DNA of 64,000 nt from an uncultured Pseudomonadota bacterium (GTDB lineage: Bacteria > Pseudomonadota > Alphaproteobacteria > Rs-D84): the NCBI GenBank assembly GCA_949283535.1, contig CASDTC010000004.1, positions 4,579 through 68,578 on the forward strand, in the 5' to 3' direction. A model generated the notes under the pieces. It did no database searches. It saw only the letters and a list, made by a program, of their open reading frames with translations, and had not been told where the DNA came from. This document shows, one piece after another, positions 20,164 to 41,797 of the stretch. A program made the position numbers and the translations under genes. How positions within the stretch are numbered: position 1 is the first letter of the stretch; the number at the start of each line of letters is the position of its first letter.

Positions 20164-21387
20164 TTAAATTAATGTTTCTTCGATTGCCATTTGTGCGATT
20201 GGCGCGATATATTTTAATTCTGTATCACTGTGCAGTGATATTTTATCAATCACGCCACGGCGCGATAAAATCTGCAATCCGCGTTCAACCAATGGGCGAA
20301 TAAATTCATGCAACAGTCGTCCATATGTCGCCCCCAGAATTCGCATCATATCCGCATTGCGCGCCATGATTTCAGTGGCAGTCATTTCTTTTTCACTTAA
20401 CAGCCCTAATCTGTCCGCCAGTAATGCATGACGAATCCGTTCACGCAAATCTTTTAATACAATCTGGGACACATCGAAATCTGCCCCAGATGATAATGGT
20501 GTCAGACCAGATGAACCAACCGCCTTTGGTATTATCGCCCCCGGGGTCAGATTTATATTCGACAGATTTATAACGCCGTCATCATCCGCCTGCCATATGC
20601 CAGAAACAGCAATTGTTGCGTTCTTTAAAACCAATTCAACGACTTTGTTCGCGGTTTTTATATCTGGCAATGCACGCAATACGGGACCACGCCCATATTG
20701 TTCACCACTGGCAACCGACCAACGAAATATTATGTATGGATTCGTTTCAAATTTGCCCGTTGATACAATATTGTTTTCAATATTACCGCCAACATCCAAC
20801 CATGCGGTAAAGTCTGTATCAATTAAACTTTGTACCAAACGCAATGGGGTTTCCGGATTATTCTTTATTTCATCACGCAGGTTTGCCGGCGGCGTCCATG
20901 TTGGGTATTTTTCCAGTACTTCACGTGCGGGCATCGTTGCCGTGTGAAATACAGCACCATTTAATGTTGCAATATCACGCATTGGAATCGCAGTAAATGA
21001 AAACGCAGATGCCGCACCAATCGGATTTTCCGCCATAAACAGGCATGCTGTCCCCAGTATTATTAAATCCATATAACATTGATGAATTGTTGTATAGAAA
21101 TTTGAATCATTCAGATTTGCACGCAATGCCATTGTTGCCGCGGCGGCATCTGGGGAATCAGCACTTTCTGGGACCAATGATATCCACAGTGATTCTGGTG
21201 GTGTCAGCAATGAATAAATTGATGCCGCCAGATTGTCAACCGCATCGGCGGCGGTGGCATCAAATAATGTTGCGGCATCGTCATCCGCCGTTGGCATGGT
21301 ATAGCGCAACGCACTGTCCCATCTGTTTAACCATGGCGCACGCAAATCTATCGCGCGCCGATACATTTGTTCAAGATTTTTATGCAT
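20164..21387 (-). CDS. phage portal (head-to-tail connector) protein
   Basis: About 408 aa from MHKNLEQMYRRAIDLRAPWLNRW..., podovirus connector-like. Lies 20 nt downstream of the terminase nuclease half. Confidence 0.55.
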   Translation of the reverse strand: MHKNLEQMYRRAIDLRAPWLNRWDSALRYTMPTADDDAATLFDATAADAVDNLAASIYSLLTPPESLWISLVPESADSPDAAAATMALRANLNDSNFYTTIHQCYMDLIILGTACLFMAENPIGAASAFSFTAIPMRDIATLNGAVFHTATMPAREVLEKYPTWTPPANLRDEIKNNPETPLRLVQSLIDTDFTAWLDVGGNIENNIVSTGKFETNPYIIFRWSVASGEQYGRGPVLRALPDIKTANKVVELVLKNATIAVSGIWQADDDGVINLSNINLTPGAIIPKAVGSSGLTPLSSGADFDVSQIVLKDLRERIRHALLADRLGLLSEKEMTATEIMARNADMMRILGATYGRLLHEFIRPLVERGLQILSRRGVIDKISLHSDTELKYIAPIAQMAIEETLI

Positions 21388-21406
21388 GAATTTTTCCTTT
21401 TGTCTG

Positions 21407-22255
21407 CTAAATTTTAAATTCTGTGTTTGCTGTAAATGGGCGGGTGCGTTGCCCCAATGGGCGTACAGGAATTGGTTGTGCACAAATTGCGCCGGCAACC
21501 GCGTCCAGTCCGTCATCATGCCCCAGCCCGCCCAATGGCGACCAACCTAACATTTCTGCAATCAATGGGGTCGCCTGGATACGCTGGTGTGCGTACAGCC
21601 GTCCTGTTGTTAAAACAGGTTCAATCGCATCTAAAATTCTGGATTCTTTGTTTTTATGATTGGTTATGTTAACTATATTAACCGATGTACCGCGATTACG
21701 CGCAACATCACGCATGATTTCAGGCAATGCATTTCCAATACCATTTGTTTCAATGCATATTCGATGTATACTGTGGTGTTGTAAAAAGCCCAATACCATT
21801 TCACACTGGCGTGCCAATGGATGTAATTCTGTATCTGGAACAATTAAATACAGCGCATCATGAATAAATATACATCTGTTTTTATCATCACGGTACAATA
21901 ATACACAAACACTGGCGTCTGATTTTTTACGTCCAGACGATGGATCCCAATATGCCGCCGCGCCTGTTATTAAATGTTCGCCAATGCTGGCGGTATTCAT
22001 ATTAAATTCTGCATCGTATAAATGCAATGCATCTGGGTCCAGGCGGGCGCGTTCAGGCGCAACAAATTCCAACATCATTTGCGCGGAAAAATATCGTGCG
22101 CCAACAGCATGGCGCATTTCATCAATACGCGAAATCGGAAACATTTCTGGCCATGCAGGTGTGCCGTCCCTTGAAATTACAGGTATTTTTAATTCACGAT
22201 ACCCACGCAAAAAAGGCGTTGAAAAAACAAAATTTTTAGATACCATATCTGACAT
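21407..22255 (-). CDS. phage terminase large subunit, C-terminal nuclease half (split gene)
   Basis: RNase-H-like nuclease motifs GRKKSDASVCVLLY and C-terminal GHDDGLDA. Has its own ATG. The N-terminal ATPase half lies 3.3 kb upstream on the same strand. Confidence 0.7.
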   Translation of the reverse strand: MSDMVSKNFVFSTPFLRGYRELKIPVISRDGTPAWPEMFPISRIDEMRHAVGARYFSAQMMLEFVAPERARLDPDALHLYDAEFNMNTASIGEHLITGAAAYWDPSSGRKKSDASVCVLLYRDDKNRCIFIHDALYLIVPDTELHPLARQCEMVLGFLQHHSIHRICIETNGIGNALPEIMRDVARNRGTSVNIVNITNHKNKESRILDAIEPVLTTGRLYAHQRIQATPLIAEMLGWSPLGGLGHDDGLDAVAGAICAQPIPVRPLGQRTRPFTANTEFKI

Positions 22256-23810
22256 GGATTTTACCCCAAAAACATTACCAACAAATCTGGAAGCAGAACA
22301 GGCGGTATTGGCGGCTGTTCTGATGAATAATCGCGCGTTGGAACGCGTGTCTGAATTTTTAAAACCGGAACATTTTTCACATCCGGCACACCAAGAAATT
22401 TACAAACTGGCACAACGACAATTTGCCGCCGGTATTCCGTTTGATATAATCACGGCAAAAAATTATCTGGATCAACAAGGAACCCTGGAATCTGTTGGCG
22501 GTGTTGATTATTTAACCCAATTGGCAGGTGCAGGTGCAACAGTTGTAAATGTTGAACAATACGGTCGCATCGTTTATGAAAATGCAATGCGGCGCGAATT
22601 AATTAACCTGGGGCAATCAATTACAGATGCTGCATTTGTCGAAGATTTAGACAATCCTGTATCTGCACAAATCGAAACCGCCGAACAAAAACTGTTTGAA
22701 ATGGCGTCCAGCGGTGTTTCCGAACGCGAAGTGTCATCAATCGCAACCGCATTGCAAAGCGCCCTGCAAGAAGCAGAAATTGCATACAAGGCAGATGGTA
22801 AATTATCTGGTTTGACAACTGGGTTAAATGCATTAGATAAATCAATCAGTGGGTTGCACCATTCTGATTTAATTATAATTGCGGGGCGTCCTGCAATGGG
22901 TAAAACAACACTGGCAATGAATATCGCATTTAATGCCGCAAATGCAATTCTGTATGGACGCGCAAATGAAAAGTACAAAGGCGCAGTTGCATTTTTCAGT
23001 CTGGAAATGTCGGCATCGCAACTGGCGGCGCGCGTGTTATCATCACAATCCAAAATCCCCGCATCTGCCATGCGCGAAGGTTCATTGACCGATGAAGACT
23101 TTTTAAAAATGTCCCAATATTCATCCGCAATTGGCAAGGTACCATTATATATTGATGATACCCCGGGAATGTCGGTACCAATGATACGAACACGCGCACG
23201 GCGTCTGGCGCGTAAATGCGGCGGAATTGCATTAATCGTAATTGACTATCTGCAATTAATGACATCTCCGGGTGGGCGCCGCAACGATAACCGTGTCCAA
23301 GAAATATCTGAAATCACACGTGGGCTGAAAATGTTGGCAAAAGAATTAGATGTCCCGGTTATCGCCCTGTCCCAGTTGTCGCGCAGTGTGGAATCCCGCG
23401 ATGACAAGCGCCCACAACTGGCAGACTTGCGTGAATCTGGTTCAATTGAACAAGACGCCGATATTGTTATGTTCACATATCGTGAAGAATACTATCTGGA
23501 AAATCGTGATCCATCACAACGCATTTCAGGAAACGCAAATGATAAAATTATCGAAAGTTATCAAAAGCGTTTGGAACGCGCACGCGGTAAAGCCGATGTT
23601 ATAATCGGTAAAAACCGTCATGGTCGACCAGAAACGGTGCATTTGGCGTTCTTTGGCGATTACAGTCTGTTTGATAATTTGGACGAAATTGATGCACGCG
23701 GAATGAACGAATTTTCCGCCCAGCAACAAAGCACACCACAAATTGGTGATGAAGATTTCGAACCAACACCAATTGATACAGATGCAATCCCTGATGATAT
23801 GCCGTTGTAA
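22254..23810 (+). CDS. dnaB: replicative DNA helicase DnaB with an acidic C-terminal extension
   Basis: N-terminal EAEQAVLAAVLMNN, Walker A GRPAMGKTT, KNRHGRPETVHLAF near the C-terminus, then an acidic tail of about 45 aa. ATG overlaps the divergent start of the terminase nuclease half by 2 nt. Confidence 0.85.
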   Translation: MDFTPKTLPTNLEAEQAVLAAVLMNNRALERVSEFLKPEHFSHPAHQEIYKLAQRQFAAGIPFDIITAKNYLDQQGTLESVGGVDYLTQLAGAGATVVNVEQYGRIVYENAMRRELINLGQSITDAAFVEDLDNPVSAQIETAEQKLFEMASSGVSEREVSSIATALQSALQEAEIAYKADGKLSGLTTGLNALDKSISGLHHSDLIIIAGRPAMGKTTLAMNIAFNAANAILYGRANEKYKGAVAFFSLEMSASQLAARVLSSQSKIPASAMREGSLTDEDFLKMSQYSSAIGKVPLYIDDTPGMSVPMIRTRARRLARKCGGIALIVIDYLQLMTSPGGRRNDNRVQEISEITRGLKMLAKELDVPVIALSQLSRSVESRDDKRPQLADLRESGSIEQDADIVMFTYREEYYLENRDPSQRISGNANDKIIESYQKRLERARGKADVIIGKNRHGRPETVHLAFFGDYSLFDNLDEIDARGMNEFSAQQQSTPQIGDEDFEPTPIDTDAIPDDMPL

Positions 23811-23879
23811 AATATTTTCTGCTTGCCATATTTCTGAAAATTGACTAATATTTTGTCAAGAATTGACAAGGAGTTTGCG

Positions 23880-24887
23880 ATGGCCCAAGAAGAAATAATT
23901 TTCCCAAATAATATCAGAAACATTCGATTGGCAAACGGCATGAAGATGACCGAGTTGGCACGCCAGGCAAATTTGTCTTTATCTGCAGTATCCAAGATAG
24001 AAAAAGGTGTTCGCCGTTTAAACCAAAAACAGTTATTGAATATCTGCAATATTTTAGGCTGTAAACTGTCGGATATTTTTATCAAAGAATCTGACGATGT
24101 TGCCGGACAATGGCAAAATGAAATTAAGCGCAGATTAAATGATAACGAAGACAGTGGGCTGAAAATATTTGGCAGCGGGCTGCGCAAAATCAGGCAACAA
24201 TCTGGTAAAACAATTGCCCAGGCGGCAAAAGATGCAGGTATGACATTGTCTGTATATCATAAGATAGAAGTTGGGCAACGCGAAATATATCAAAATGAAA
24301 TCGAGCCATTGGCAAAATCTTTTTCTTATACAGTTGGCGATATGTTTGATAAAATCGCTGCAATGTATAAATCGGGTGAATTAAACAAACAAATTAATAA
24401 GGTTAAGGAACGCGTTAAATCTGTTCTGATTCCGGGCAGTCCATTGTCTGGTATTGACATGCACAGCAGTCTGTATGGTGCAAAACTGTATGACAGTGCG
24501 CGTAAAAAATTGGTTCCTGTATTTGGCACGCCATCTGGCAAATCAATCACTTTTAAAAAATCAGATAAAACCATGATTGTTGCCCCAATGCCACTGGAAG
24601 GACATAAAGGAATTTACGCCGTAATCCCAAATTCAAAACGATTGGGTGGTTTTATTCCTGAAAAATCATATGTATTTGCAGATGCAGATACGCCCGCAGC
24701 GGTTGGTGATTTGGCGGTATGTATCGATACCGATTTTAATTCAATGGATTCAAATGATGTTGCAACCGCACAAATTGTCAGTGTCCGCCAGGATTCCAGG
24801 GGCAAAATATACGGGCAAATCGCATCACCCGAAGAAAAAATTATTGGCAAAAACATGCACAAGGTTGTTATGATTGTAATGGAATAA
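23880..24887 (+). CDS. CI/LexA-like repressor with tandem XRE HTH domains and a C-terminal S24-peptidase-like domain
   Basis: Two HTH_3 modules (MKMTELARQANLSLSAVSKIEKG and KTIAQAAKDAGMTLSVYHKIEVG). C-terminal beta-rich domain with an LexA-like layout. RBS aaggag. Confidence 0.55.
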   Translation: MAQEEIIFPNNIRNIRLANGMKMTELARQANLSLSAVSKIEKGVRRLNQKQLLNICNILGCKLSDIFIKESDDVAGQWQNEIKRRLNDNEDSGLKIFGSGLRKIRQQSGKTIAQAAKDAGMTLSVYHKIEVGQREIYQNEIEPLAKSFSYTVGDMFDKIAAMYKSGELNKQINKVKERVKSVLIPGSPLSGIDMHSSLYGAKLYDSARKKLVPVFGTPSGKSITFKKSDKTMIVAPMPLEGHKGIYAVIPNSKRLGGFIPEKSYVFADADTPAAVGDLAVCIDTDFNSMDSNDVATAQIVSVRQDSRGKIYGQIASPEEKIIGKNMHKVVMIVME

Positions 24888-24911
24888 CATTTCTGTACAG
24901 GGGGGACAAAA

Positions 24912-25592
24912 ATGAACGCAAAAGCCAGCACAACCGCACAAAAATTATTAAACCTGTATCGCCAAGAACATGTTATTTTCGGCGGATGGGCAGCCGTTAA
25001 TCAGGTCTTTGTCAATGAAGCCACCCCAGAAATCTTGCGCGAATTACGCGAATTGCCAACCGGAAAAAATCTGATAAAACATATTGAAAACCTGCGCAGT
25101 GGTAAAACAAAAATGGATTCCATTGAACGCGAACTGTTGCCGTATGGTGGATTAATGGCGGAAACCATTGCAACCGTACCGTTGACATCGAATGAATGGA
25201 ATGAATTAGAATCTGGGATAAATTCATTTACCACCGACCAAGAAGGATTAGACCGAATACAACAATTAAATGTTATAAAAAAATTTGGCGACCAATGGAT
25301 TGTTGCAATACGTGCGGCATTATCAGAACGACCAGATTTATTAGAAAAATGGTCAATCGTTACAAAAACATATCGTGCATATTATTTATGGAAGGTTGCC
25401 AGCGATATGCTGAACCAACCATTATCTGAACGCGCACGCGCACAATTACAGGCCGACATGCCAGAATATGAAACATATCTGCCAATGTTTGGCGATAAGG
25501 GTACAGAACTGTTAGAAAAACTGCGTTCATTTATTACAACGATGAAACCGATTGAAACAGATAACGCCCCAGATGCCCCAACATCTATCTAG
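24912..25592 (+). CDS. hypothetical protein
   Basis: 226 aa with no recognisable motifs. Stops converge on the terminase ATPase half with a 4-nt overlap. Confidence 0.45.
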   Translation: MNAKASTTAQKLLNLYRQEHVIFGGWAAVNQVFVNEATPEILRELRELPTGKNLIKHIENLRSGKTKMDSIERELLPYGGLMAETIATVPLTSNEWNELESGINSFTTDQEGLDRIQQLNVIKKFGDQWIVAIRAALSERPDLLEKWSIVTKTYRAYYLWKVASDMLNQPLSERARAQLQADMPEYETYLPMFGDKGTELLEKLRSFITTMKPIETDNAPDAPTSI

Positions 25593-26245
25593 CCCCCATC
25601 GTTATCATGTGTTCTGTAAATCGTATCCATTGTATGTGGTGTGCCAATATATAACATTGTCCCAGTGGGGGATAAAATAAAATCCAATTCACGCAATCGT
25701 TCCCGCAATGCCGTGCGTTTTTGTGTGGTGTTTGATGTGTTTGGGACCTCTATATCATCACAAATAATTAAATCTGCACGCATTCCTGTAATATTGCCAT
25801 GAATGCCTTGGCACATAACGGATGGTTCGCGTATTCCAATCGCACGATTTATGGTTATTCGACCATTTGCCCATTCTTTTTTATTTTTAGGAATCAGATT
25901 TGCACATCGTGGATGATTTTCCAATATATGACGAATATGCGATACCATACGCGTTGCCAAACTGTTTTCAGCAGACAATATCAGGATTCTGGTTTCTGGG
26001 TACAGGTATAAAATACATGCTGCAAATATACCAACAACTGTTGATTTACCAGAATGCCGAAATGCCATCAACAACCCACGATGCGGTGGCGTTTCCCATA
26101 TTGATACTAAAAATTCCATGATTCGCCGGTGATGTGCCGGCGTGGTCAGTCCCAATATATCGTTCCATTCATCCAGAAATTCATAAAACGCCGTAATCAT
26201 CGCGATTTTCATTTGGTGCAGGTTCTGTAATACTGCCATAATCAT
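25589..26245 (-). CDS. phage terminase large subunit, N-terminal ATPase half (split gene)
   Basis: Walker A AFRHSGKST, Walker B ADLIICDD, coupling motif YIGTPHT. Ends shortly after the ATPase domain. Confidence 0.7.
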   Translation of the reverse strand: MIMAVLQNLHQMKIAMITAFYEFLDEWNDILGLTTPAHHRRIMEFLVSIWETPPHRGLLMAFRHSGKSTVVGIFAACILYLYPETRILILSAENSLATRMVSHIRHILENHPRCANLIPKNKKEWANGRITINRAIGIREPSVMCQGIHGNITGMRADLIICDDIEVPNTSNTTQKRTALRERLRELDFILSPTGTMLYIGTPHTMDTIYRTHDNDGG

Positions 26246-26729
26246 TTATTAATTTTGGCAATGCATTTTCCAGAACAGATACCAAATTCCCATACAATCC
26301 CATTACCGCCCCACCGGTTAGTTTATCTTGGATAACACTTAAATTATATTCCAAAAATGCCATCACATTATTGTGGGTGTTTTTCCATTCGGTTAAATCA
26401 ATATCTATTTCATGTAAATCACGAAAGGCTTCGACCAAAAAATTAAAATCAGAATTTAAATTTTCTGGGTCTATTTTTGCAGTAGGCTGGTAATCAATAA
26501 CACGCGTTAATGCAATTTGGCGAAAAATATCAATTTGTGCGCCTGATTCTGGGGCAATGGGGAAGACAACCGTGCCACCATCAAAATCGTCATTTGCAAC
26601 AACCGCATAATTTGCAGAATCCATAACAGATTCATTAATCGCAACCCGAACATCTGCATCCTGGAAAAAAGGGAATGCAAAAATATACTGCGTTGTTTCG
26701 CCATCGCCGGTATATGATACTTTATACAT
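26181..26729 (-). CDS. T7 gp17-like tail fibre, N-terminal tail-attachment domain only
   Basis: MYKVSYTGDGETTQYIFAFPFFQDADVRVAIN resembles T7 gp17 VLTYQLDGSNRDFNIPFEYLARKFVVVTLIG. Only 182 aa. 3' end overlaps the terminase ATPase half out of frame. Confidence 0.45.
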   Translation of the reverse strand: MYKVSYTGDGETTQYIFAFPFFQDADVRVAINESVMDSANYAVVANDDFDGGTVVFPIAPESGAQIDIFRQIALTRVIDYQPTAKIDPENLNSDFNFLVEAFRDLHEIDIDLTEWKNTHNNVMAFLEYNLSVIQDKLTGGAVMGLYGNLVSVLENALPKLINDYGSITEPAPNENRDDYGVL

Positions 26730-26743
26730 TTTATTCCCCGTTT

Positions 26744-27091
26744 TTATCCGACCAAATCATCAAATTTATCCAATAATGTTTGCAACAGGTTTGGACGCTG
26801 TGCTTTAGTTTGTTTTAATTTTTCCATATTTGCACGGCGGCGTTCATTATATGGTTGCGCTGTTTCAGATTGCAATCTTTTCAACACCGCGCCAGTTGAC
26901 ATACTGCGTCCAGATACACCAGACGCGCCATATTTTGCACGTTGGGTTGCCAATGCTTTTTTTACCAGGTTTGTTTTTTCACGCTCGTCCGCCGCCATAT
27001 CAGATAAAATTTGTTGGCGGGTGTTTTCAGCCTGTTGTTTTGAATCCTTGTAATCTAAAATACTTTTTACATCTGATACCAATTGTCCCAT
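26744..27091 (-). CDS. coiled-coil virion-associated hypothetical protein
   Basis: 115 aa, predicted helical, sits between tail tubular B and the fibre stub. Confidence 0.35.
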   Translation of the reverse strand: MGQLVSDVKSILDYKDSKQQAENTRQQILSDMAADEREKTNLVKKALATQRAKYGASGVSGRSMSTGAVLKRLQSETAQPYNERRRANMEKLKQTKAQRPNLLQTLLDKFDDLVG

Positions 27092-27114
27092 TGTATTTAC
27101 CCCTTGGATTAAAT

Positions 27115-28830
27115 TTATACTATGTAATATCCGTACATCGATACAGACAAAATTGTTGATGGTAATTGTTCACTGCTGGAAATTTTCCATGGCGCATTTA
27201 TACAATTACGTTGAACCCCCAGTAAATTTACAGATACATCACCACTGTATCCAGATGACGCGTCATCGTATATATCGTTCGGCAATGATGCGCGCGCGTC
27301 ATTTATAAATAATGTTTTTGTATTTAAAACCCGCGCAGATATTTTACGAATTTTCAATTTGTTCGCATTATGACCAGACGCACGCAGCGGCATTGCCGCC
27401 GCAGCAAACGAAAAACCATATTGACCCGCATCGTTTAATGCAGTATCTGAAAATTTTTCCAGAAAATAATTCGCACCCCGGGCAACAACCGTATATGTTT
27501 GACCATCCAGTGTCGCAACAGATTTAAATTGACCCTGGGTTTTATATTGCGCCCATGCAGAAATCCCCAATGCAGAATTCTGATTTAAAACCGCCATATC
27601 GCCATCTGACATTACAACAAATAATTGCCGGGTATTATCATTATATGATAAATCAACCGGATCACGCATTAAATGCTTTGCCGCGGCACATAAATCATTT
27701 GCATTATAATATTCGCCCAATTGATCCAAGCTTAATTCACGAATGTCTTTTTTACCCGCAGATATGAATACGGTTGCCCCCTCTATCTTTTGTGGCGGCA
27801 GATATCTGGACGCAACGCTGCCAACAGATGTGTGTTGTTTTATATCAACCGCCGATGGTGTTAATGGCTTGCTGGAAATCGCCCATTCACCAGCATTTGT
27901 TAAAATTTGTAAATTATCGCTGCTGACAACTGTGCATATCTGTTGACGCTGTTGCGACAGTAATGTTAAAAAGATGGCTTCATCATCCAGACCAGTTCCA
28001 ACATTAAAATTATTATGCCGTCCAACACGCGACATCCATACGCCACTGGGCCATGCACGCGAACCACCAAACACCAATCTGTCTTGATGAAATGTAATAC
28101 TGCACGGCCAGCCACGGCGCGTGCTGAATGCCGCTTCGTACCAATCGGATACCGGGTCTGATGGTATTGAATATGTGCCGTTTGTATATGCATACACAAC
28201 CGTTGGACTGACATATTCTGTGATTATCCATTGTTTATCCAGTAATAAAAAGCGCCCGTCTTCATTTTCAGATGTCCAAAAATTTTTATTTGTTGTAAAT
28301 GTTGCATAGTTATTACCACTGGCATTTGATGATACTGTTATCTTTATGCCATCTGCATCATCAAATTTCATAAACGGTATATTTACAGTCATATCAGAAT
28401 CATTGCGTTCAAAGTCAAATGCAATGATATCAAATGTGCTGTCTGTTTTCTGTAATACATATGGTTGATAATCTGGATGAACAAATATCATTGTGCCAAA
28501 TCGCTGGGCATATTGCAATTTATCCAATTCATCAAAATCCCATGGTGCAAATAAATCTGCAATACGAACATCATCGCTGTACACTAAAATATGTCCATCT
28601 GTTAAAACCAGCAAGTAATTTTCTGATTCGCCAACAGAAAACGGTATCAGACGCGCCGATGACGATAAATTTGCAACAGACGCCAATCCACGGCGCCGTT
28701 GTAACCCACCCCCCGCCAGCACATCCATATTTTCCAATCGCGACAAACCATTTAAATTATCGCGGGCAAAAAATTCTGGCGCGACTTCACCGTCTGCAAA
28801 TGAATTCTGTGTTTTTATAAAATCGCCCAT
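27115..28830 (-). CDS. T7 gp12-like tail tubular protein B
   Basis: N-terminus GDFIKTQNSFADGEVAPEFFARDNL...GLQRRRGL matches T7 gp12 ISQSIKNLKGGISQQPDILRYPDQ...GLQKRPPL. 571 aa. Confidence 0.6.
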   Translation of the reverse strand: MGDFIKTQNSFADGEVAPEFFARDNLNGLSRLENMDVLAGGGLQRRRGLASVANLSSSARLIPFSVGESENYLLVLTDGHILVYSDDVRIADLFAPWDFDELDKLQYAQRFGTMIFVHPDYQPYVLQKTDSTFDIIAFDFERNDSDMTVNIPFMKFDDADGIKITVSSNASGNNYATFTTNKNFWTSENEDGRFLLLDKQWIITEYVSPTVVYAYTNGTYSIPSDPVSDWYEAAFSTRRGWPCSITFHQDRLVFGGSRAWPSGVWMSRVGRHNNFNVGTGLDDEAIFLTLLSQQRQQICTVVSSDNLQILTNAGEWAISSKPLTPSAVDIKQHTSVGSVASRYLPPQKIEGATVFISAGKKDIRELSLDQLGEYYNANDLCAAAKHLMRDPVDLSYNDNTRQLFVVMSDGDMAVLNQNSALGISAWAQYKTQGQFKSVATLDGQTYTVVARGANYFLEKFSDTALNDAGQYGFSFAAAAMPLRASGHNANKLKIRKISARVLNTKTLFINDARASLPNDIYDDASSGYSGDVSVNLLGVQRNCINAPWKISSSEQLPSTILSVSMYGYYIV

Positions 28831-28846
28831 TTATCCCCCCCTGTAA

Positions 28847-29365
28847 TTAAAATCGCGTATTTATCAAAGAAAAATTTTTTATCCCTGCTGTCGGTGCAGA
28901 CGCACTGTCAATATATTTTGCAGATTGTAATTCTGTTTCATATAACGCCGCCAACATTCTGAATACCGTTTGTTCACCAATTAGCGGAATGCAAAATTCC
29001 ATTGCCAATTTCGTTGCCACCAATGATACAAAATAACTGGGGAATAATTCAGGCGCGACACGAATAATTGCGGTTATATTTATTGTATCTGTCGGTGCAA
29101 TAACCGTATTTCCGATTATTTCACCATTGCACTTTAAAACGCGCAAAATATCCGCAGGCAATAAAAATTCGCCATCATTATTTTTGGTCAATTCAAAACA
29201 TTTACATGCAAATCGCCATGGATGCATTGCCAGTAATGCATCAACCACTGGGTCAAATAAAGTTCGCCCCAATTGCGCCGCGGGCGTGTCATCCAGTAAT
29301 GATTGTATCGGTTTTTCACCCAATTTTAACAGCGCCATTGAACATAAATCTATTTTTGTATGCAT
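28847..29365 (-). CDS. T7 gp11-like tail tubular protein A
   Basis: MALLKLGEKPIQSLLDD matches gp11 ILASIGEPPVSTLEGD. 172 aa. Confidence 0.55.
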   Translation of the reverse strand: MHTKIDLCSMALLKLGEKPIQSLLDDTPAAQLGRTLFDPVVDALLAMHPWRFACKCFELTKNNDGEFLLPADILRVLKCNGEIIGNTVIAPTDTINITAIIRVAPELFPSYFVSLVATKLAMEFCIPLIGEQTVFRMLAALYETELQSAKYIDSASAPTAGIKNFSLINTRF

Positions 29366-29420
29366 TTGTGTTATCCAATTTTATATTAAAAAAACGGGGT
29401 GCCGTGGCACCCCAATTAAA

Positions 29421-29648
29421 TTATGCCAATGCAGCAACCGCCACATTCGTACTGACCGTTATTTTCTTTATCGATGTATTATCAGATGCATTAATAATAA
29501 CGATATCACCAGTGTTCATTAATGTTTTGACGCTGTCAAAATATCCAGATGCGGAAATTGTCGCCATTGTTTCTGTTGATGCATAATGCCACAATGTAAA
29601 TCCGTTTGCATATGCGATTACAGATAAATTTTTATTTTGAAAAGCCAT
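29421..29648 (-). CDS. small hypothetical protein between capsid and tail tubular A
   Basis: 75-aa ORF with a consistent operon position. Confidence 0.3.
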   Translation of the reverse strand: MAFQNKNLSVIAYANGFTLWHYASTETMATISASGYFDSVKTLMNTGDIVIINASDNTSIKKITVSTNVAVAALA

Positions 29649-29675
29649 TTATAATTTCCTTTGTTTGCATTTAAA

Positions 29676-30512
29676 TTAATCACCAGTTTCATCAGTATCT
29701 TTGCATTTCAAACGAACAATGCCGGCATTATCAATCAATACAGCGCCCTGGGACATACTGTTGCTGATAAAGTGCGCAGCGCGTTCACCATGCCATGATA
29801 TATCCGTTTTTACTTCTTGACCGCATGCATGACCAATGCTGGTTGCATGATAAATAAAGCAATCACGATTATCTGTGCTGGTTAATGGCAAACTGTTATA
29901 CATTACCCATGTTATCCCCAGCCATTTCTTGGATGCACCCCCAGACACCAATGGCAAATCGTTACCAACATAATCCGCAGATACAAATTCGTCCATGGAC
30001 AGTAATTCATTCCATTGGTGTACGCCAACAACAGCAAAACGACGACCATCATCAGGAACATCGTTCTGATTTAAAACTTCGACCGCTGATAAAATTAAAT
30101 CCTTGGTCAGCCCTGTTGAATAATCACCTGTTGCATTTGTTGCGCTATTCATTGCATTCACAATCAATTCATCTGTCTTGCGCCCCAATGCATATGCACC
30201 TGCAGATGCAACAACACGGCGTTCATCAACATTCGTTTTCAATTCATCCAATGCATCAACCCAATCACCGGCATAGTAATCTTGCAATATACATTCAACA
30301 GGTTCATGATTTAAATTCATAACCGGTACAATACCATGACGCGACTTTGTGGCGGCGGTACCGCGTCCAACCTTTTGAAAAGTTGTCGATGCCCCAACAA
30401 CACCGGATTTGCTGCGTACTGTTGCGCGCAATTTTGTACCCATTTGCTGATACGCCAAATGTACATCCGCTTCGAATTGTTTGATAAAAACCTGATCTAC
30501 TGAAACAGACAT
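29676..30512 (-). CDS. major capsid protein (T7 gp10-like)
   Basis: DQVFIKQFEADVHLAYQQ...TVRSKSGVVGASTTFQKVGRGTAAT resembles gp10 ALFLKVFGGEVLTAFAR...MVRSISSGKSAQFPVLGRTQAAY. Lies directly downstream of the scaffold gene. Confidence 0.55.
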   Translation of the reverse strand: MSVSVDQVFIKQFEADVHLAYQQMGTKLRATVRSKSGVVGASTTFQKVGRGTAATKSRHGIVPVMNLNHEPVECILQDYYAGDWVDALDELKTNVDERRVVASAGAYALGRKTDELIVNAMNSATNATGDYSTGLTKDLILSAVEVLNQNDVPDDGRRFAVVGVHQWNELLSMDEFVSADYVGNDLPLVSGGASKKWLGITWVMYNSLPLTSTDNRDCFIYHATSIGHACGQEVKTDISWHGERAAHFISNSMSQGAVLIDNAGIVRLKCKDTDETGD

Positions 30513-30718
30513 TATTTATTTCCCTTGGTTAAAAAAATTAAAACAAGCGCCAATATGCGCCGATAAAATTTTGTATTATGGTTATGCAATTTAATTGCGC
30601 CATTTAACAAAACATGCGGGTCCACACGGGATTGTCCAAATAAAAAATATTCAGTCAGACTGATATAATCCGACTGAATATTTCAAAATAAAAATCCCCG
30701 CAATTGCGGGGAATTATA

Positions 30719-31090
30719 TTATTTTCTTTTTGCACATGTTTTTTTTGCCGCTGGCTTTTTCGCCGCAACTTTTTTAACAGGTGCCTTTTTTACTGCTGCC
30801 TTTGCGACTGGTTTTTTCGCCGCAACTTTTTTTGCAACCGTTTTTTTTGCAACCGTTTTTTTTGCAACTGGCTTTTTCACTGCAACTTTCTTTGCCGCTG
30901 GTTTCTTGGCAACCGCAACTTTTTTAACAGCCGGTTTTTTCGCTGCAACTTTTTTTACAGCAGGCTTTTTTGCAACTGGTTTCTTTGCCACGGCAACTTT
31001 CTTTGCCGCAGGTTTCTTTGCAGCCGGTTTTGCCGCTGGCTTTTTCGCAGCAGGTTTTTTGGCGGCTGGCTTTAAGAATGTGAATGCCAT
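30719..31090 (-). CDS. lysine/alanine-rich histone H1-like DNA-binding protein
   Basis: MAFTFLKP followed by about 20 KPAAKK/KKVAVAKKP repeats. Good RBS ggagagaag. Not a CRISPR array despite the nucleotide periodicity. Confidence 0.7.
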   Translation of the reverse strand: MAFTFLKPAAKKPAAKKPAAKPAAKKPAAKKVAVAKKPVAKKPAVKKVAAKKPAVKKVAVAKKPAAKKVAVKKPVAKKTVAKKTVAKKVAAKKPVAKAAVKKAPVKKVAAKKPAAKKTCAKRK

Positions 31091-31196
31091 TCTTCTCTCC
31101 TTCTTCATTTTTTGGATAGAACAAATTTGTTTTGTTCTTACTTTATATTTTATATGAAACAAAAATATTAGTAAAGAAGAAAGTGCATTTTTTTCA

Positions 31197-31853
31197 TTAC
31201 GAATATAATTTTTTAAATCCATTTTCTATTTTGCGAACATATTCTGGATCATAATCACGCCAATATTTTGGATCACGCATCATGCGACGCAATTCAGAAT
31301 CAGATAAATTTTTTATATCTTCATCATCGGTACGAACACTGGGTTCCATCGATTGCATCATTCGGTATACGCCTTGGATTCCCTGGGGTGTGGCACATAA
31401 TGCATCAAATGCATCACGCGGTAAATATTTTTGTCCGAATGAATTTATTGCGCGTAATGCATCATTCATTTTTTCTGTTGTGCCAAAAAAATTTTTTAAT
31501 TCTGCAATTGCATTTGATTCATTTTGCATATCAAATAATTCTGTTAATACGGGTGATAAAAATTCTTCGGCAATTTGATAAATTTTTTCAACCTGGGTTG
31601 ATGTTAATCCAATTTCAAAAAATTTTTCACGCACTGCGTCATCATCAAATAACTGATTCGTTGGATATTCTGATGCAGATTCTGGAACACCAATTGCACG
31701 ATTAAATTTTGCACGCGATGCACCATCAGCATCATTGCCAGGCACAGATATCATCGTTCCAATTTTCTTTTCTAATTCAATATATGATTTTAACAACGCA
31801 TCTGTGTTTAATGTTCCGTCTTTATTCAGAAATTTTTCTGGAATGTTTTCCAT
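31197..31853 (-). CDS. capsid assembly scaffolding-like protein
   Basis: 219 aa, helical and acidic, positioned like T7 gp9 immediately upstream of the capsid gene. Confidence 0.45.
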   Translation of the reverse strand: MENIPEKFLNKDGTLNTDALLKSYIELEKKIGTMISVPGNDADGASRAKFNRAIGVPESASEYPTNQLFDDDAVREKFFEIGLTSTQVEKIYQIAEEFLSPVLTELFDMQNESNAIAELKNFFGTTEKMNDALRAINSFGQKYLPRDAFDALCATPQGIQGVYRMMQSMEPSVRTDDEDIKNLSDSELRRMMRDPKYWRDYDPEYVRKIENGFKKLYS

Positions 31854-32043
31854 GTTTTTTTCCTTTGGTTTCACTGGATTTGCGCAAGAAATAAATTCCG
31901 CCCAATGTAAATACAGATTGCAACATAGTAAATATATCGGTATCGCCAACCATATATGCACCAATTGCAGACAATATACCAATTCCTGAAATGATATATG
32001 TTCGATGTCCGGATAAAAATCCGCCACTGATAATTTTTCGCAT
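31822..32043 (-). CDS. small membrane protein, possible holin
   Basis: 73 aa with TM segments (IISGIGILSAIGAYMV) and a charged C-terminus. Lies between the hydrolase and scaffold genes. Confidence 0.3.
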   Translation of the reverse strand: MRKIISGGFLSGHRTYIISGIGILSAIGAYMVGDTDIFTMLQSVFTLGGIYFLRKSSETKGKKHGKHSRKISE

Positions 32044-32056
32044 GATTGTTTTCCGA

Positions 32057-32467
32057 TTATAAATAAAACAACAGTCCATCTATATCTGCGATATATCCGC
32101 GCGATGTTGACCATGCCGGCATTTTATCTGCATGATGAAAACGCGTTGCGCCATTGCATGAATCTGGTAACGCGCCATGCAACATTCGTGATACCACACG
32201 CAGACACATCTGAAATTTATTGTCAGATGCATTAACAAACAATAATTTATTGTTTTCAGATTTTGAATCCAGTGAATTAAATAATTCTGAATCCGATATT
32301 ATATCTGAATAATCACGACCAGTGACATGGGCAATATTTGCAATCATTGATGCCATTGCTTCGACCAATCGTAATGTTGATGCATGTGTTTCAGCATATA
32401 CCACCCGTGCAATTTGATATAATATGGCGCGCGATTTATCTGGATTGTTTATCAGTGTTAATTGCAT
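32057..32467 (-). CDS. SleB-like cell wall hydrolase (Hydrolase_2 family)
   Basis: ARVVYAETHASTLRLVEAMASMIANIAH matches the A..VY.EA...E...G..AVA.VI.NR motif. Likely the endolysin of the phage cluster. Confidence 0.6.
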   Translation of the reverse strand: MQLTLINNPDKSRAILYQIARVVYAETHASTLRLVEAMASMIANIAHVTGRDYSDIISDSELFNSLDSKSENNKLLFVNASDNKFQMCLRVVSRMLHGALPDSCNGATRFHHADKMPAWSTSRGYIADIDGLLFYL

Positions 32468-32612
32468 TTGACAATCCCCCCGTTGTTGCAAATAAAAACG
32501 GCACGCAATAAATGCGTGCCATAAAATAAAAAATCCGCCATACGCGGACATAATCTTTCTGATTATGTGTTATATATTATCATAAATTGGATATAAAGTC
32601 AAGATAATATTT

Positions 32613-33293
32613 TCACATACTGATTTCGTCACCATATGCCAATAAATAACGCGTATCATTGCGCAGCACCAGCGCACCATTTTCATTAATTCCGATTAAT
32701 TCCATTTCTTCGCCACGATATTTCACTGTGCGATTTAATCCCGCCGCTAAATCCATCCAACGCGCGCGAACATCGACAAATGGTATGCGGCGCCACCGAT
32801 CCAGATTCTTCATCAAACGGTTTAATAATTCTGATTTTTCAACCGTGGCATAATTATCCAGTTTCGTTGTTTGATATGCGGCAACCGTTGGATTTGATTT
32901 TATATTTATTCCAATTCCGACAATAACAAATTGCCCCGCATATTCAATTAATATGCCACATACTTTTTTACCATCAATTAAAATATCATTTGGCCATTTT
33001 ATTTTTGGATGAATTCCAAACGAAATCAGTGTTTCTGCAACTGCGACCGCAACAACATATGACAATCGTGGGTCGCGTTCATCGGCATTATAAATAAAAC
33101 TGGCATACAAATTACCATGGTGCGACACCCATGTGCGCCGATATCGACCGCGTCCAGCGGATTGCGCCATTGCCATAATAACAGTATGATCACGCGCCGC
33201 GCCAGATGCAACCATTTCCAACGCATATGTCTGGGTACTGGGGATTTTATCAAAAGAAATCAATTTATAATTTGCCAATTGAATATACACCAT
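32613..33293 (-). CDS. birA: biotin--[acetyl-CoA-carboxylase] ligase
   Basis: QSAGRGRYRRTWVSHHGNLYAS signature and KIKWPNDI. No N-terminal HTH domain. Confidence 0.85.
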   Translation of the reverse strand: MVYIQLANYKLISFDKIPSTQTYALEMVASGAARDHTVIMAMAQSAGRGRYRRTWVSHHGNLYASFIYNADERDPRLSYVVAVAVAETLISFGIHPKIKWPNDILIDGKKVCGILIEYAGQFVIVGIGINIKSNPTVAAYQTTKLDNYATVEKSELLNRLMKNLDRWRRIPFVDVRARWMDLAAGLNRTVKYRGEEMELIGINENGALVLRNDTRYLLAYGDEISM

Positions 33294-33741
33294 TTACATT
33301 TTTTATAAAATCATGTCCAAAGGCACGGCGTAATTGATAAATTGCCGTATCAACCGTATGCGTTGTTGCATCTGGTGAATACCCCAATGCCGTGCGCAAT
33401 TGTACTGCCGACATGCCCCCAGATTTGTATAACAATATTATAATTTTTGCCTGAATTGCGGGCATTTGTACATTACGACCAAAAATTTCACGAATTATTC
33501 GTATATCATCATCCAATGCATGCTGAATTACACTGCGCAAATTCATGATTGATATTGGCGTTGTGATATTCAATGCATCGAAATCCAGCCCGGTTGCAAT
33601 TGGTGCATCGGATACATTCGCCCCCAGGTCGGACAATATATGCCGCCATATTGAATCTGATGAAAAAATATTTATACCGTCCAGCATAGTCCCAGAATAA
33701 TAAAAGAACCCGCAATTGTCCAACAAAAAAGACCGCGACAT
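33265..33741 (-). CDS. winged-helix (OmpR/PhoB C-terminal-like) DNA-binding protein without a receiver domain
   Basis: C-terminus MSAVQLRTALGYSPDATTHTVDTAIYQLRRAFG...GVYSIGKL fits the trans_reg_C pattern. Confidence 0.45.
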   Translation of the reverse strand: MSRSFLLDNCGFFYYSGTMLDGINIFSSDSIWRHILSDLGANVSDAPIATGLDFDALNITTPISIMNLRSVIQHALDDDIRIIREIFGRNVQMPAIQAKIIILLYKSGGMSAVQLRTALGYSPDATTHTVDTAIYQLRRAFGHDFIKNVNGVYSIGKL

Positions 33742-33771
33742 ATGTCACGGTCAAAATCGGCAAAAACGCAA

Positions 33772-34017
33772 TTATTCGCGATCTTTGCCACGCGGTTCAA
33801 TGAATTTTGTAAAATCTTGGATACTGGCGCCAGTTGACGACAATATCTTGGAAATACTGTTTGTTGATGGCCAACGCGGTTGCCCTTCCTTGGACCAGCG
33901 CTTGCTTTTATTAAAAGTTGTCGGATCCAAACCGCTGCATTTTGCCAATCCAGAACAGGACATGCCATGTTCCGTGGCAAAGCGTTCAATCGCCCGCCAA
34001 ACATCTTCGTGTGTCAT
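33772..34017 (-). CDS. 81-aa HTH protein, paralog of the gene at 39530-39760
   Basis: MTHEDVWRAIERFATEHGMSCSGLAKCSGLDPTTFNKSKRWSKEGQPRWPSTNSISKIL. RBS aagggagagag. Confidence 0.55.
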   Translation of the reverse strand: MTHEDVWRAIERFATEHGMSCSGLAKCSGLDPTTFNKSKRWSKEGQPRWPSTNSISKILSSTGASIQDFTKFIEPRGKDRE

Positions 34018-34219
34018 ATTTCTCTCTCCCTTGGTTTTAATGCGACAAACCATATACGGTTGGGCATTAATGTCTGATATTGATTTTATTCCAACCCAGC
34101 ACAATGGGCAACAAGGACGATTTCCTAAATTTGGCGTTTTTTGGGGAATAAATATAATACAAAAAATTATTTTGACAAAAATACTTGACAAATTAAATAA
34201 AATGTATTACATTTCGATT

Positions 34220-34417
34220 CGTCAAAGGGGGAAACCCCGGCGACGGGGTGAAAGCCCCATGGGGTTCAGGGATTCAGACTCCCTCCTACATTCTCTCTCC
34301 TCTGGACTCTGGACCCCGACATTTTGGTTTAGAATGCCCAATTTCTTTTTCTCCTTTCCTTCCTTTCGGGGCATTCGGAAACACCGCCGGGAAACCGGCG
34401 GCGTTTTTTTATTTTTT
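34220..34417 (+). ncRNA. candidate small RNA with a CU-rich hairpin loop (promoter-to-terminator unit)
   Basis: TTGACA at about 34185 with TACATT 17 nt downstream. Hairpins GGGGAAACCCC and GGGGUGAAAGCCCC. Long stem GAAUGCCC/GGGCAUUC encloses a 27-nt CU-rich loop. Intrinsic terminator caccgccgggaaaccggcggcg followed by a T-run. Confidence 0.3.
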
Positions 34418-34498: not shown

Positions 34499-34831
34499 TT
34501 ATTTTGCTGGAACAATTTCGTTTACAGTAACAGTAAATACGACATCCTGACCCGCCAATTCAGGCACATAGTTTTCAGGGAATGTAATATTAATATCACG
34601 GGTTTCGCCCTGTTCCATGCCAATCAATTGTTCTTCAAACCCGGGGACGAATTGACCACTGCCCAAAACCAATGGGAAATTTGTTGCGGTGCCACCTTCG
34701 AATTGAACGCCATCTTTATATCCAGCAAAGTCAATCACAACTGTATCGCCATTTTGTGCCCCAGCATTACTATCGCACGCTGTTAAAAACATTGCACCAC
34801 AAATCGCAACCGCGGACATGATTTTTTTCAT
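34499..34831 (-). CDS. FKBP-type peptidyl-prolyl cis-trans isomerase lipoprotein
   Basis: Lipobox LTAC. GDTVVIDFAGYKDGVQFEGG...LGSGQFVPGFEEQLIGMEQGE matches the FKBP/trigger-factor PPIase fold. Confidence 0.75.
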   Translation of the reverse strand: MKKIMSAVAICGAMFLTACDSNAGAQNGDTVVIDFAGYKDGVQFEGGTATNFPLVLGSGQFVPGFEEQLIGMEQGETRDINITFPENYVPELAGQDVVFTVTVNEIVPAK

Positions 34832-39267: not shown

Positions 39268-39529
39268 AAATAAATACCGCAGATTTCTGCGGTTTTTTTG
39301 TTGTTTTATATCGGCGTCGTTTTTTTGCACATTTTTGCACAAAATAAATATAATGATATAAATTTAGTAAAATTTTATATTTGGCAAAATACTTTCTGAT
39401 ATATAACCCATTGTTTTTTGTTTATTATAAGAATAGGAATATTTTCCACTGTACAAAAACGAGAATTTAGGATAAAATTCAACCATATTTAGAATATAGT
39501 CTAAATAAATCAAACAGAGGAGAGATTTT

Positions 39530-39760
39530 ATGACACACAGCAACATATGGGCGGCGATTGATACAGTGGCTGCAAAAATGGGTATTACCTGTTCTTGTTT
39601 AGCAAAACTTTGCGGTATGAACCCGACTGCGTTTAACAAAAGCAAACGCGTATCTAAATATGGCAAACCGCATTGGCCATCGGTCAGCACAATTTCTAAA
39701 ATCACATCTGTCGCGCATATTACACCCGAAGAATTCGGTCGTATTGTGCGTCAAAAATAA
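39530..39760 (+). CDS. 76-aa HTH protein, paralog of the gene at 33772-34017
   Basis: MTHSNIWAAIDTVAAKMGITCSCLAKLCGMNPTAFNKSKRVSKYGKPHWPSVSTISKIT. RBS gaggagaga. Terminator downstream. Confidence 0.55.
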   Translation: MTHSNIWAAIDTVAAKMGITCSCLAKLCGMNPTAFNKSKRVSKYGKPHWPSVSTISKITSVAHITPEEFGRIVRQK

Positions 39761-41558: not shown

Positions 41559-41797
41559 GATATCTCTCTCCCTTGGTTTTTTGATACACATGTAATGTTA
41601 ATACAGCACGCCCACATAAATAAACAGGACAGGTTTCCGATTTGACAATTCGTAAATGTTATGAATATAATACAGACATGAAAAAAATATTATTTGGATT
41701 TTTATTGGTCGCGACGATGGCAATTGCCGCATGCGGCGTTAAATCAGAACTGGATAACCCCGACCCATCATATCCCCGCAATTATCCAGTGTATTGA

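Follow-up and report, generated by a model that had tools for sequence, protein, structure and literature searches.

A candidate small regulatory RNA of 'Candidatus Enterousia' with two invariant pyrimidine-rich loops that recur in phage hairpins

Here we describe an RNA gene located at positions 34185-34417 of the plus strand of a stretch of 64,000 nucleotides (nt) of DNA (the window, to whose coordinates all positions refer) from 'Candidatus Enterousia', a gut alphaproteobacterium of the order Rs-D84 with a genome of about 1 Mb. The two pyrimidine-rich loops of the RNA are identical across some 150 genomes and contigs, and they recur in hairpins of several phages that have otherwise unrelated stems. 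It is a new family of small RNAs (sRNAs), defined by loops that are common to a bacterial order and several phages, and because the family is defined by its loops and not by its overall sequence, standard covariance models would miss most members. We favour, with somewhat better than even confidence, the view that it acts in trans, as an sRNA that would occlude ribosome binding sites (RBSs) through its two CU-rich loops, and that these loops have been copied by phages. Rs-D84 is a widespread, uncultured lineage of the gut and rumen; Enterousia has been placed in this order, and its genomes (0.75-1.0 Mb) encode neither a tricarboxylic acid cycle nor respiratory chains (PMC12306168). Our literature search returned no report of a regulatory RNA for Rs-D84, and a full-text search with the loop sequences gave nothing relevant.

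A conserved RNA gene with two invariant loops

A preliminary description of this DNA had proposed an orphan promoter-to-terminator unit of about 200 nt, predicted to encode an sRNA with CU-rich loops resembling the anti-Shine-Dalgarno (anti-SD) sequence. This proposal is supported by the analysis, in that the unit is non-coding and its best loop duplexes fall at RBSs, for which repression would be predicted. The parts of the gene are as follows.

34170..34180, plus strand: 11-bp palindromic box TTTTGACAAAA, directly upstream of the -35 hexamer, invariant in all aligned homologues
34185..34213, plus strand: sigma-70-type promoter, TTGACA (34185-34190), 17-nt spacer, TACATT (34208-34213); promoter scan, 10/12 consensus matches
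34217..34412, plus strand: predicted primary transcript of about 195 nt, its start placed from the -10 hexamer and its end from the U-tail of the terminator
34221..34258, plus strand: 5' hairpins P1 and P2, from the alignment and RNAalifold
34261..34317, plus strand: hairpin P3, 17 bp, with the 22-nt loop 1, from fold and alignment
34327..34332, plus strand: single-stranded linker GUUUAG joining P3 and P4, its columns almost invariant in the alignment
34332..34376, plus strand: hairpin P4, 8-bp stem with the 29-nt loop 2, from fold and alignment
34384..34417, plus strand: intrinsic terminator CCGCCGG-GAAA-CCGGCGG followed by a U run, from a terminator scan

The promoter and the small GC hairpins described earlier were thus located: P1 is formed by GUC...GAC around GGGG-loop-CCCC, with the small hairpin GGGGGAAACCCC at 34227-34238, and the variable P2 is GGGGUGAAAGCCCC at 34245-34258, deleted in nine lineages (L011, L013, L034, L036, L038, L041, L044, L045 and L048). 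The long stem with a C/U loop is P4, in which GAAUGCCC (34332-34339) pairs with GGGCAUUC (34369-34376); the stem stands as first described, but its loop measures 29 nt and not 27. The CU tract noticed ahead of that stem is CUCCCUCCUACAUUCUCUCUCC at 34279-34300. It had been overlooked that this tract is itself a loop, namely the 22-nt loop 1 of the 17-bp hairpin P3. Loop 2 as a whole reads AAUUUCUUUUUCUCCUUUCCUUCCUUUCG (34340-34368), and its pyrimidine-rich part presented as the predicted seed is UUUCUUUUUCUCCUUUCCUUCCUUUC. The terminator, already considered strong, has a 7-bp all-GC stem (34384-34401) followed by T7-A-T6, and the U run is exclusive to the plus strand. The region 34215-34417 folds at -79.9 kcal/mol (z = -4.1 versus dinucleotide shuffles). 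As had been remarked, the flanking genes lie on the minus strand and no plus-strand gene follows for 1 kb, the next one beginning at 35470.

Conservation was analysed at loci fetched via the product of the left-hand neighbour, an 81-amino-acid (aa) Cro/C1-type helix-turn-helix (HTH) protein, HTH81, whose gene (33772-34017, minus strand) is divergent from the RNA unit. About 600 homologues of this protein occur in Alphaproteobacteria, with hundreds of near relatives in uncultured gut Alphaproteobacteria, 'Candidatus Enterousia' among them. Taking one genome per GTDB species gave 80 loci, one of which is carried by a circular chromosome of 958,618 bp. The RNA was present in all of the syntenic species-level genomes with sufficient upstream DNA (47/47; 80-94% identity), constantly about 190 nt upstream of the HTH81 gene and divergent from it. 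This figure is unbiased, because the loci were found via the protein, independently of the RNA. The 47 RNA sequences from these protein-located loci constitute the alignment used for the structure and loop statistics.

In addition, metagenome contigs were scanned for the exact 22-nt core of loop 2, which gave 120 stretches. The exact loop 1 is also held by 105 of them, which represent the Enterousia RNA; the other 15 consist of four cut by contig ends, two variants (L154 and L185), three low-complexity stretches and six phage sequences. The metagenome hits have one copy of the RNA per contig, and no second copy was found in the window; two similarities, at 58961 and 59430, were discarded as second copies, being located inside or beside an unrelated minus-strand gene. 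No CU-rich RNA was found next to the paralogous HTH gene of the window (see below) or next to the distant alphaproteobacterial homologues (L047, L050-L080). The preliminary description had made its proposal depend on conservation beyond the strain, and the unit was found to span an order-level clade in which the stems covary and the CU loops are invariant.

RNAalifold gave a consensus of five helices that form a row of local hairpins, with 98.6% of the cells paired (99% in P3). Compensatory double changes were observed at 16 pairs, as compared to 6.9 +/- 1.7 in shuffled alignments (0/500 reached 16) and at most 7 in controls with a slid register. In the P4 stem 6/8 pairs are compensatory and none is broken, in the terminator stem 4/6 pairs are compensatory, and the pairs of P1 show compensatory changes as well. 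G-U pairs account for roughly 100 of the 1595 scored cells; P3 contains many of them, compatible with the plus strand only, and one U-G pair is retained in 46/47 sequences. The RNA can be assigned to the plus strand because of these G-U pairs, which would be A-C mismatches on the opposite strand, and because of the one-sided U run.

The loops behave differently from the stems. A 30-mer around loop 1 (34275-34304) is invariant in 47/47 sequences, and a stretch of 22 nt in loop 2 (34346-34367) shows a single substitution, in one genome, whereas the first six positions of loop 2 and the last one vary or carry indels. Pairwise identity is 100% in loop 1 and 94% in loop 2, versus 56% in the other unpaired columns. 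The neighbouring proteins of the same genomes are 35-62% (the 158-aa protein wHTH158), 42-61% (a lysin-like protein) and 58-87% (BirA) identical. Judged from these alignments, the RNA is among the most conserved non-ribosomal sequences of Rs-D84, and since 30 nt remain invariant while the neighbouring proteins diverge, a central role in cell regulation is likely. Covarying stems together with CU loops that are invariant across the clade argue for a functional RNA with the loops as its working parts; on this comparative evidence the loops are functional parts, and we have very little doubt that the RNA gene is real. The promoter hexamers (CTTGACAAA and TAYATT, both close to invariant) and the 11-bp palindrome are conserved along with the whole unit in the 47 genomes; the palindromic box could be an UP-like element or an operator.

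Known identities were considered. At gathering thresholds, Rfam 15 found tRNAs only in the window, and ARAGORN likewise found tRNAs only, and no transfer-messenger RNA (tmRNA). When the region was searched with permissive filters at E <= 10, sub-threshold chance matches were the sole result; the best, to the ylbH leader, lies on the opposite strand and scores 26 bits versus a gathering score of 50. The housekeeping RNAs (tmRNA, 6S, signal recognition particle RNA and RNase P) were not listed even at this limit, so that their absence, noted in the preliminary description, was borne out. A 6S RNA would have a closing stem joining its 5' and 3' ends; the predicted structure here is a row of local hairpins, and no 6S model matched. 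Coding on the plus strand was rejected, as its only ATG (34259) lacks conservation and the lengths of the linker indels are not divisible by three. A minus-strand coding sequence was rejected too: the antisense open reading frame (ORF) crosses loop 1 in two frames among the homologues, and its length varies. Neither does the unit resemble a type III toxin-antitoxin RNA, its only repeat being a trivial one of 7 nt in two copies and no same-strand gene following for 1 kb; PADLOC gave no matches in the neighbouring genes. What is present are the features of a generic trans-acting sRNA, i.e. its own promoter and terminator, a lack of coding capacity, a conserved single-stranded seed and RBS-complementary sites.

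The same loops in phage hairpins

In each of the six phage stretches (L087, L145, L105, L169, L183 and L190; 28-36% G+C) a strong hairpin, with a stem entirely unlike those of the host, has the 22-mer in its terminal loop. Their contigs carry phage genes, such as those for a major head protein, a RuvC-like resolvase and a phage ATPase; the capsid protein of L105 is 33-36% identical to those of Xanthomonas and Pseudomonas phages of about 114 kb, with weaker similarity to Rhizobium and other phages. Inspection by eye revealed a sigma-70-like hexamer pair upstream of the hairpin in four cases (none was seen for L105 and L190); in all six, a U-rich run or a hairpin resembling a terminator lies downstream. 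Four of the contigs (L105, L169, L183 and L190) contain loop 2 only. With fewer than one exact match to the 22-mer expected by chance, on a rough estimate of the size of the collection, and with every match lying in the loop of a hairpin encoded by a phage contig, the six occurrences are not due to chance.

When IMG/VR was searched with the 17-nt core of loop 2, two further phages were identified: the 231-kb jumbo phage L209, a relative of L087 and L145, and L220, a 62-kb phage contig that has about 200 nt of flanking DNA in common with L105. L209 contains two units and also holds the 17-nt loop-2 core. In unit 1, of about 330 nt, the loop of the first hairpin reads ...CUCCUUUCCUUCCUUUC and that of the second CCUACAUUCUCUCUCCUC; in unit 2, the hairpin loop UCUCCCUCCUACAUUCUCUCUCCUC equals Enterousia loop 1 over 24 nt. 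In L220 a loop-1-like hairpin is followed by a loop-2-like one, which is the module order of the host, and the second hairpin doubles as a terminator. The fold z-scores are -5.8 for unit 2 of L209 and -6.5 for L220. The structure of unit 1 is retained across three phages (L209 4285-4640, minus strand; L145 11075-11410; L087 1-335), where a long conserved 3' domain (GAUCCGUUUGCUUGAUG...CAAGGACAAAAGUAGAC) without an Rfam match extends beyond the two CU loops. Altogether, host and phage loops are identical over 17-26 nt, the motif occurs up to three times per phage in different stems, and a profile made from the host RNA hits the phage units at the loops only. Neither Rfam nor ARAGORN matched the phage units.

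Apart from L209 and L220, most IMG/VR matches to the 17-mer were reverse complements of purine-rich RBSs or of low complexity, and because their number is near the chance expectation, itself a rough estimate, no conclusion is drawn from them. It can be noted that assorted phages (L204, L206-L208, L211, L213, L219, L221 and L222) have the exact 17-mer GAAAGGAAGGAAAGGAG at 5-9 nt before an ATG, as an extended purine-rich RBS; loop 2 is therefore the complement of a naturally used type of RBS, with the same reservation that the count is near a roughly estimated chance level.

With the same loops set in different stems, the phage copies amount to a 'mutagenesis' carried out by nature, which singles out the loops as functional parts, and a host regulatory RNA may here have had its seed copied by phages. 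Phages with these loops probably use the same host-directed pairing activity. The shared loops also provide a sequence-based handle linking uncultured phages to the Enterousia group, their presumed host; the contigs derive from rumen and gut sample series rich in Enterousia contigs. Many of the proteins encoded on the phage contigs are ORFans and none is common to the window, and no complementary target sites were found in these contigs.

Stretches of 17-26 nt that are identical in host and phage are typical of the cores of attachment (att) sites, and this raises the question of whether there is an RNA gene at all. The region might instead be an attB/attP core, an antisense small protein or 5' leader, or a set of convergent or divergent regulatory regions. 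Besides the length of the identity, such a view could draw on the antisense strand, where the reverse complement of loop 2 (GGAGAAAAAGAA) followed by ATG or TTG looks like an ideal RBS with a start codon in most homologues, and where the sub-threshold ylbH leader match lies. However, the antisense ORF passes through loop 1 in either of two frames and is of variable length, the G-U pairs and the polarity of the terminator fit the plus strand only, and neither coding nor att function explains the compensatory changes in the stems. Moreover, the phage motif lies in hairpin loops, mostly preceded by a promoter-like site and followed by a U-rich run or terminator-like hairpin, and recurs within one phage in different stems, and integration would disrupt the RNA, yet all host copies are intact. 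On the grounds of reading frames, strand signals, covariation and intact host copies, the coding, attachment-site and no-gene readings were rejected, and we consider it highly improbable that any of them is correct.

Predicted targets and the partner of the loops

The sites that bear on the predicted function of the loops are listed here.

33772..34017, minus strand: gene of HTH81, with a weak match to Pfam HTH_26; candidate regulator and candidate target
34020..34034, minus strand: RBS of HTH81, CCAAGGGAGAGAGAA, complementary to the 3' half of loop 1; predicted duplex of -23.0 kcal/mol
39515..39525, plus strand: RBS of the paralogous 76-aa HTH gene, CAGAGGAGAGA, 11 nt perfectly complementary to loop 1; -21.2 kcal/mol
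39530..39760, plus strand: paralogous 76-aa HTH gene, product 46% identical to HTH81, directly after tRNA-Glu
41563..41576, minus strand: RBS of an oleate hydratase (MCRA) gene, CCAAGGGAGAGAGA, complement of loop 1; -22 to -24 kcal/mol

When both strands of the window were scanned, the three best contiguous duplexes with loop 1 were all formed by RBSs, namely those of HTH81, its paralogue and MCRA. Eleven other gene starts that were checked gave -3 to -16 kcal/mol, and against the 16S anti-SD-like sequence the same three RBSs gave only about -9 to -10.5 kcal/mol. Perfect complementarity between the HTH81 RBS and loop 1 extends over 10-15 nt in 13/47 genomes and over at least 7 nt in 24/47; control ORFs, taken at the best candidate start of each, reached a maximum of 8 nt, and hence none of the 231 reached 10. 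The median duplex energy of the HTH81 initiation region in the 47 genomes is -16.5 kcal/mol versus -9.3 for 342 control ORFs, each scored at its best candidate start, and HTH81 is the best site of its locus in 27 of the 47. The paralogue has its own orthologues in the same genomes (L050-L067), and the fetched loci lack the MCRA gene. No long target with perfect complementarity emerged from 1.3 Mb of related sequence, where the matches were the RNA gene itself and RBS-sized ones. HTH81 has no NCBIfam name and no PADLOC match, and versus the PDB it gave a marginal match only, to a prophage Cro-like protein.

Based on these data, HTH81 is a good candidate target in this genome, and the following model can be proposed. 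A stand-alone sRNA of about 195 nt would be transcribed from a strong-looking sigma-70 promoter of its own up to the intrinsic terminator. Its two long single-stranded pyrimidine-rich loops would act as seed regions and pair with the purine-rich translation initiation regions of several mRNAs, thereby blocking 30S binding; in this genome the best candidate targets would be the RBSs of HTH81, the HTH paralogue and the oleate hydratase. HTH81 may in turn control the sRNA promoter, as suggested by the divergent arrangement, so that the two would form a mixed regulator/sRNA feedback module wherever the HTH81 gene is present. Phages would encode functional look-alikes that display the same loops. 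Transcription, translational repression, the identity of the targets and regulation by the HTH protein are things we infer from the DNA.

Several observations weigh against this model or restrict it. Among the 98 metagenome hits with room for the HTH81 gene (about 90 of them Enterousia-type), 81 have it divergent from the RNA. However, at least five lineages (L129, L134, L136, L141 and L158) keep the invariant RNA without an adjacent HTH81 gene, the RNA there directly adjoining wHTH158, again divergently, and in L112, L114, L185 and L192 it is found in another gene context altogether. HTH81 therefore cannot account for the invariance of the loops, and the RNA must have further targets. The long complementarity is also clade-limited, lineages whose HTH81 RBS is of the GGGGG or AAGGA type having 4-6 nt only. 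It should be noted that a purine-rich RBS will pair with a CU-rich loop almost by definition, so that enrichment at RBSs is weak proof of targeting, and that the target control statistics ignore phylogenetic non-independence. As for the phages, their assignment to Enterousia hosts is presumptive. Finally, an invariance of 22-30 nt far exceeds a typical seed of 7-12 nt, and could point to a protein or ribonucleoprotein (RNP) partner instead.

Such a partner is the main rival explanation. The RNA would then be a sponge or scaffold whose loops bind a host factor, for example S1, a cold-shock protein, Hfq or another protein with KH or S1 domains, and the host RNA and its phage copies would titrate or recruit this factor with no mRNA pairing. 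We give this a minor but appreciable share of the probability. It would fit not only the length of the invariant stretch in each loop, but also the retention of identical loops in phages with unrelated stems, the failure to find a perfectly complementary long target among the 120 metagenome hits, and the invariance of the RNA where the best candidate target gene is missing. On the other hand, no gene for a candidate protein is linked to the RNA, the loop cores are anti-SD-like, and the perfect complementarity of certain RBSs, 10-15 nt long, is well above that of the controls. To our knowledge, moreover, proteins that bind pyrimidine-rich single strands seldom need an exact sequence of 22-30 nt. 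Pairing of the loops with RBSs remains our preferred reading.

Some further initiation regions and motifs were observed. A protein of 213-226 aa, encoded about 8.7 kb from the RNA (L122 1896-2537; also in L202 and L099), has an RBS, GGAGAGAGAAC(C)ATG, that is a loop-1 complement in three divergent Enterousia contigs; these contigs share the block GTTATGATTGTTATGSAATA upstream of the gene. The ORF at 30719-31090 (minus strand), between the scaffold-like and major head genes of the window, encodes an Ala/Lys/Pro-rich, histone-H1-like repeat protein (KKPAAKK...), and its RBS GAAGAAGGAGAGAAGAATG pairs with loop 2 at -17.5 kcal/mol. The promoter region of HTH81 (34083-34130) contains two conserved blocks, CAACAAGSACSATTTCCTAGG and GATTTTATTCC in plus-strand reading; the former is a possible operator or activator site, and the latter likely holds the -10 element TAAAAT of the HTH81 promoter. 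On the other side of the RNA, a gene for an FKBP lipoprotein (34499-34831, minus strand) is convergent with it and has its own terminator at 34477-34452.

Known analogues and the adjacent phage-like cluster

In enterobacteria, the sRNA genes oxyS, gcvB and sgrS are divergent from the genes of their own transcription factors, oxyR, gcvA and sgrR, and GcvB reaches many RBS regions by means of a long, conserved stretch that is single-stranded. The Enterousia RNA is similar in that it lies back-to-back with a small DNA-binding regulator, the promoters being about 100 nt apart. It differs in that the regulator is an 81-aa Cro/C1-type HTH protein and not a LysR- or SgrR-type activator, that the sRNA is predicted to pair with the RBS of its own regulator, and that the link is dispensable in some lineages. 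Unpaired C/U-rich loops that pair with a G/A-rich leader or SD sequence are known from RepG of Helicobacter and from RsaE/RoxS and the UCCC-motif sRNAs of Firmicutes. With these the Enterousia RNA has no homology in sequence or structure; their seeds are short, and we know of no phage copies described for them.

The closest likeness in design is to the cuckoo or alpha-r14 sRNAs (RSs0680/CcsR1-4, SmelC397/NfeR1), in which each hairpin loop carries CCUCCUCCC; these are stand-alone alphaproteobacterial sRNAs with adjacent hairpins, stems that drift by compensatory change, and conserved C/U-rich anti-SD-like loops that are presumed to occlude RBSs (PMC4615179). Cuckoo RNAs have two to four such hairpins, and the Enterousia RNA has two, P3 and P4, with variable covarying stems, in an alphaproteobacterial clade. 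It is nevertheless not a member of that family: CCUCCUCCC is absent from 34217-34412, and no Rfam alpha-r model matched even at E <= 10. Its loops, unlike those of the cuckoo RNAs, are 22-29 nt long, different from each other and invariant over their whole length, and it occurs in one copy per genome and shares its loops with phages.

Phage RNAs that interfere with host RNAs are also known. Pseudo-ToxI of phage PhiTE mimics the functional part of a host RNA (PMC3475682), and phage-encoded anti-sRNAs of enterohaemorrhagic Escherichia coli interfere with host riboregulation, with AgvB mimicking a target site and not an sRNA seed (PMC4104026). The phage hairpins described here are comparable, in that small RNAs of phages would likewise reproduce what makes a host RNA work or disturb host riboregulation. 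Unlike ToxI, a tandem-repeat antitoxin that binds the adjacent toxin, the Enterousia RNA has neither repeats nor a toxin gene. Another RNA with a similar setting is Brt of Bartonella, an abundant RNA of about 200 nt beside the small XRE/Cro-type HTH gene trp in a region rich in phage genes; it lies upstream of trp on the same strand, is present in 2-34 copies, and has been proposed to act as a terminator or riboswitch (PMC5387305). Size, alphaproteobacterial origin, the small HTH neighbour and the phage-related surroundings are alike. Going by the published description of Brt, the Enterousia RNA is set apart by being divergent from HTH81 and single-copy, and we regard Brt/Trp as a loose analogue.

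These surroundings suggest another explanation, according to which the RNA is a phage-derived immunity or switch RNA that, in the manner of the P1/P7 c4 RNA or the P4 CI RNA, would control the conserved head, tail and lysis genes downstream of HTH81 together with that protein, with related free phages sharing the specificity. We think this unlikely. The RNA does head a conserved co-directional array (HTH81, wHTH158, BirA, lysin, scaffold, major head, tail tubular A and B, terminase), the first gene of which has an RBS that pairs with the loops, and identical loops occur in phage genomes. But the other genes of the array are poorly complementary, the cluster is broken up by housekeeping genes and a split terminase, and contigs L112, L114, L185 and L192 have the RNA in a different context. 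In addition, the loop-bearing phages, which include one with a T4-like capsid and the 231-kb jumbo phage, look unrelated to the T7-like cluster, and their contigs lack complementary target sites. A role in phage immunity for the adjacent cluster is possible, but poorly supported.

A bolder extension of RBS occlusion, to which we likewise attach a low probability, is that the RNA is the labile brake of a host switch for suicide or particle release, and that phages disarm this switch by RNA mimicry. In uninfected cells, the abundant RNA would silence translation of HTH81-type regulators and of other mRNAs with RBSs of the GGAGAGAGAA or GAAAGGAAGG type. When a phage shuts off host transcription, the RNA would decay and the HTH81-headed head/tail/lysin cluster would fire, and phages (jumbo phages, those with a T4-like capsid and others) would hence carry promoter-driven hairpins with the same loops. 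If true, this would be the first host sRNA whose seed sequences have been copied by several unrelated lytic phages.

The cluster itself looks like a long-conserved, domesticated phage-like cluster, perhaps resembling a gene transfer agent (GTA). It comprises T7-like (podovirus) structural genes at 20164-34017 on the minus strand and 21984-25592 on the plus strand, encoding a portal, a major head protein, a scaffold-like protein, tail tubular proteins A and B, a tail-fibre-like protein and an endolysin-like protein; the large terminase is in two halves (21407-22255 and 25589-26245). Housekeeping genes are interleaved with this set, BirA being one of them and DnaB, located between the terminase halves, another. 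The BirA of this locus has no N-terminal DNA-binding domain. The gene of wHTH158 (33265-33741, minus strand), whose product has a weak match to OmpR-type winged helices, overlaps the BirA start by 29 nt. Synteny of the block HTH81-wHTH158-BirA-lysin-scaffold extends over more than 47 Rs-D84 genomes at species level, the capsid proteins are 80-88% identical in those contigs that are long enough (L081-L083, L141 and L158), and three contigs with the syntenic cluster are filed as viral in IMG/VR.

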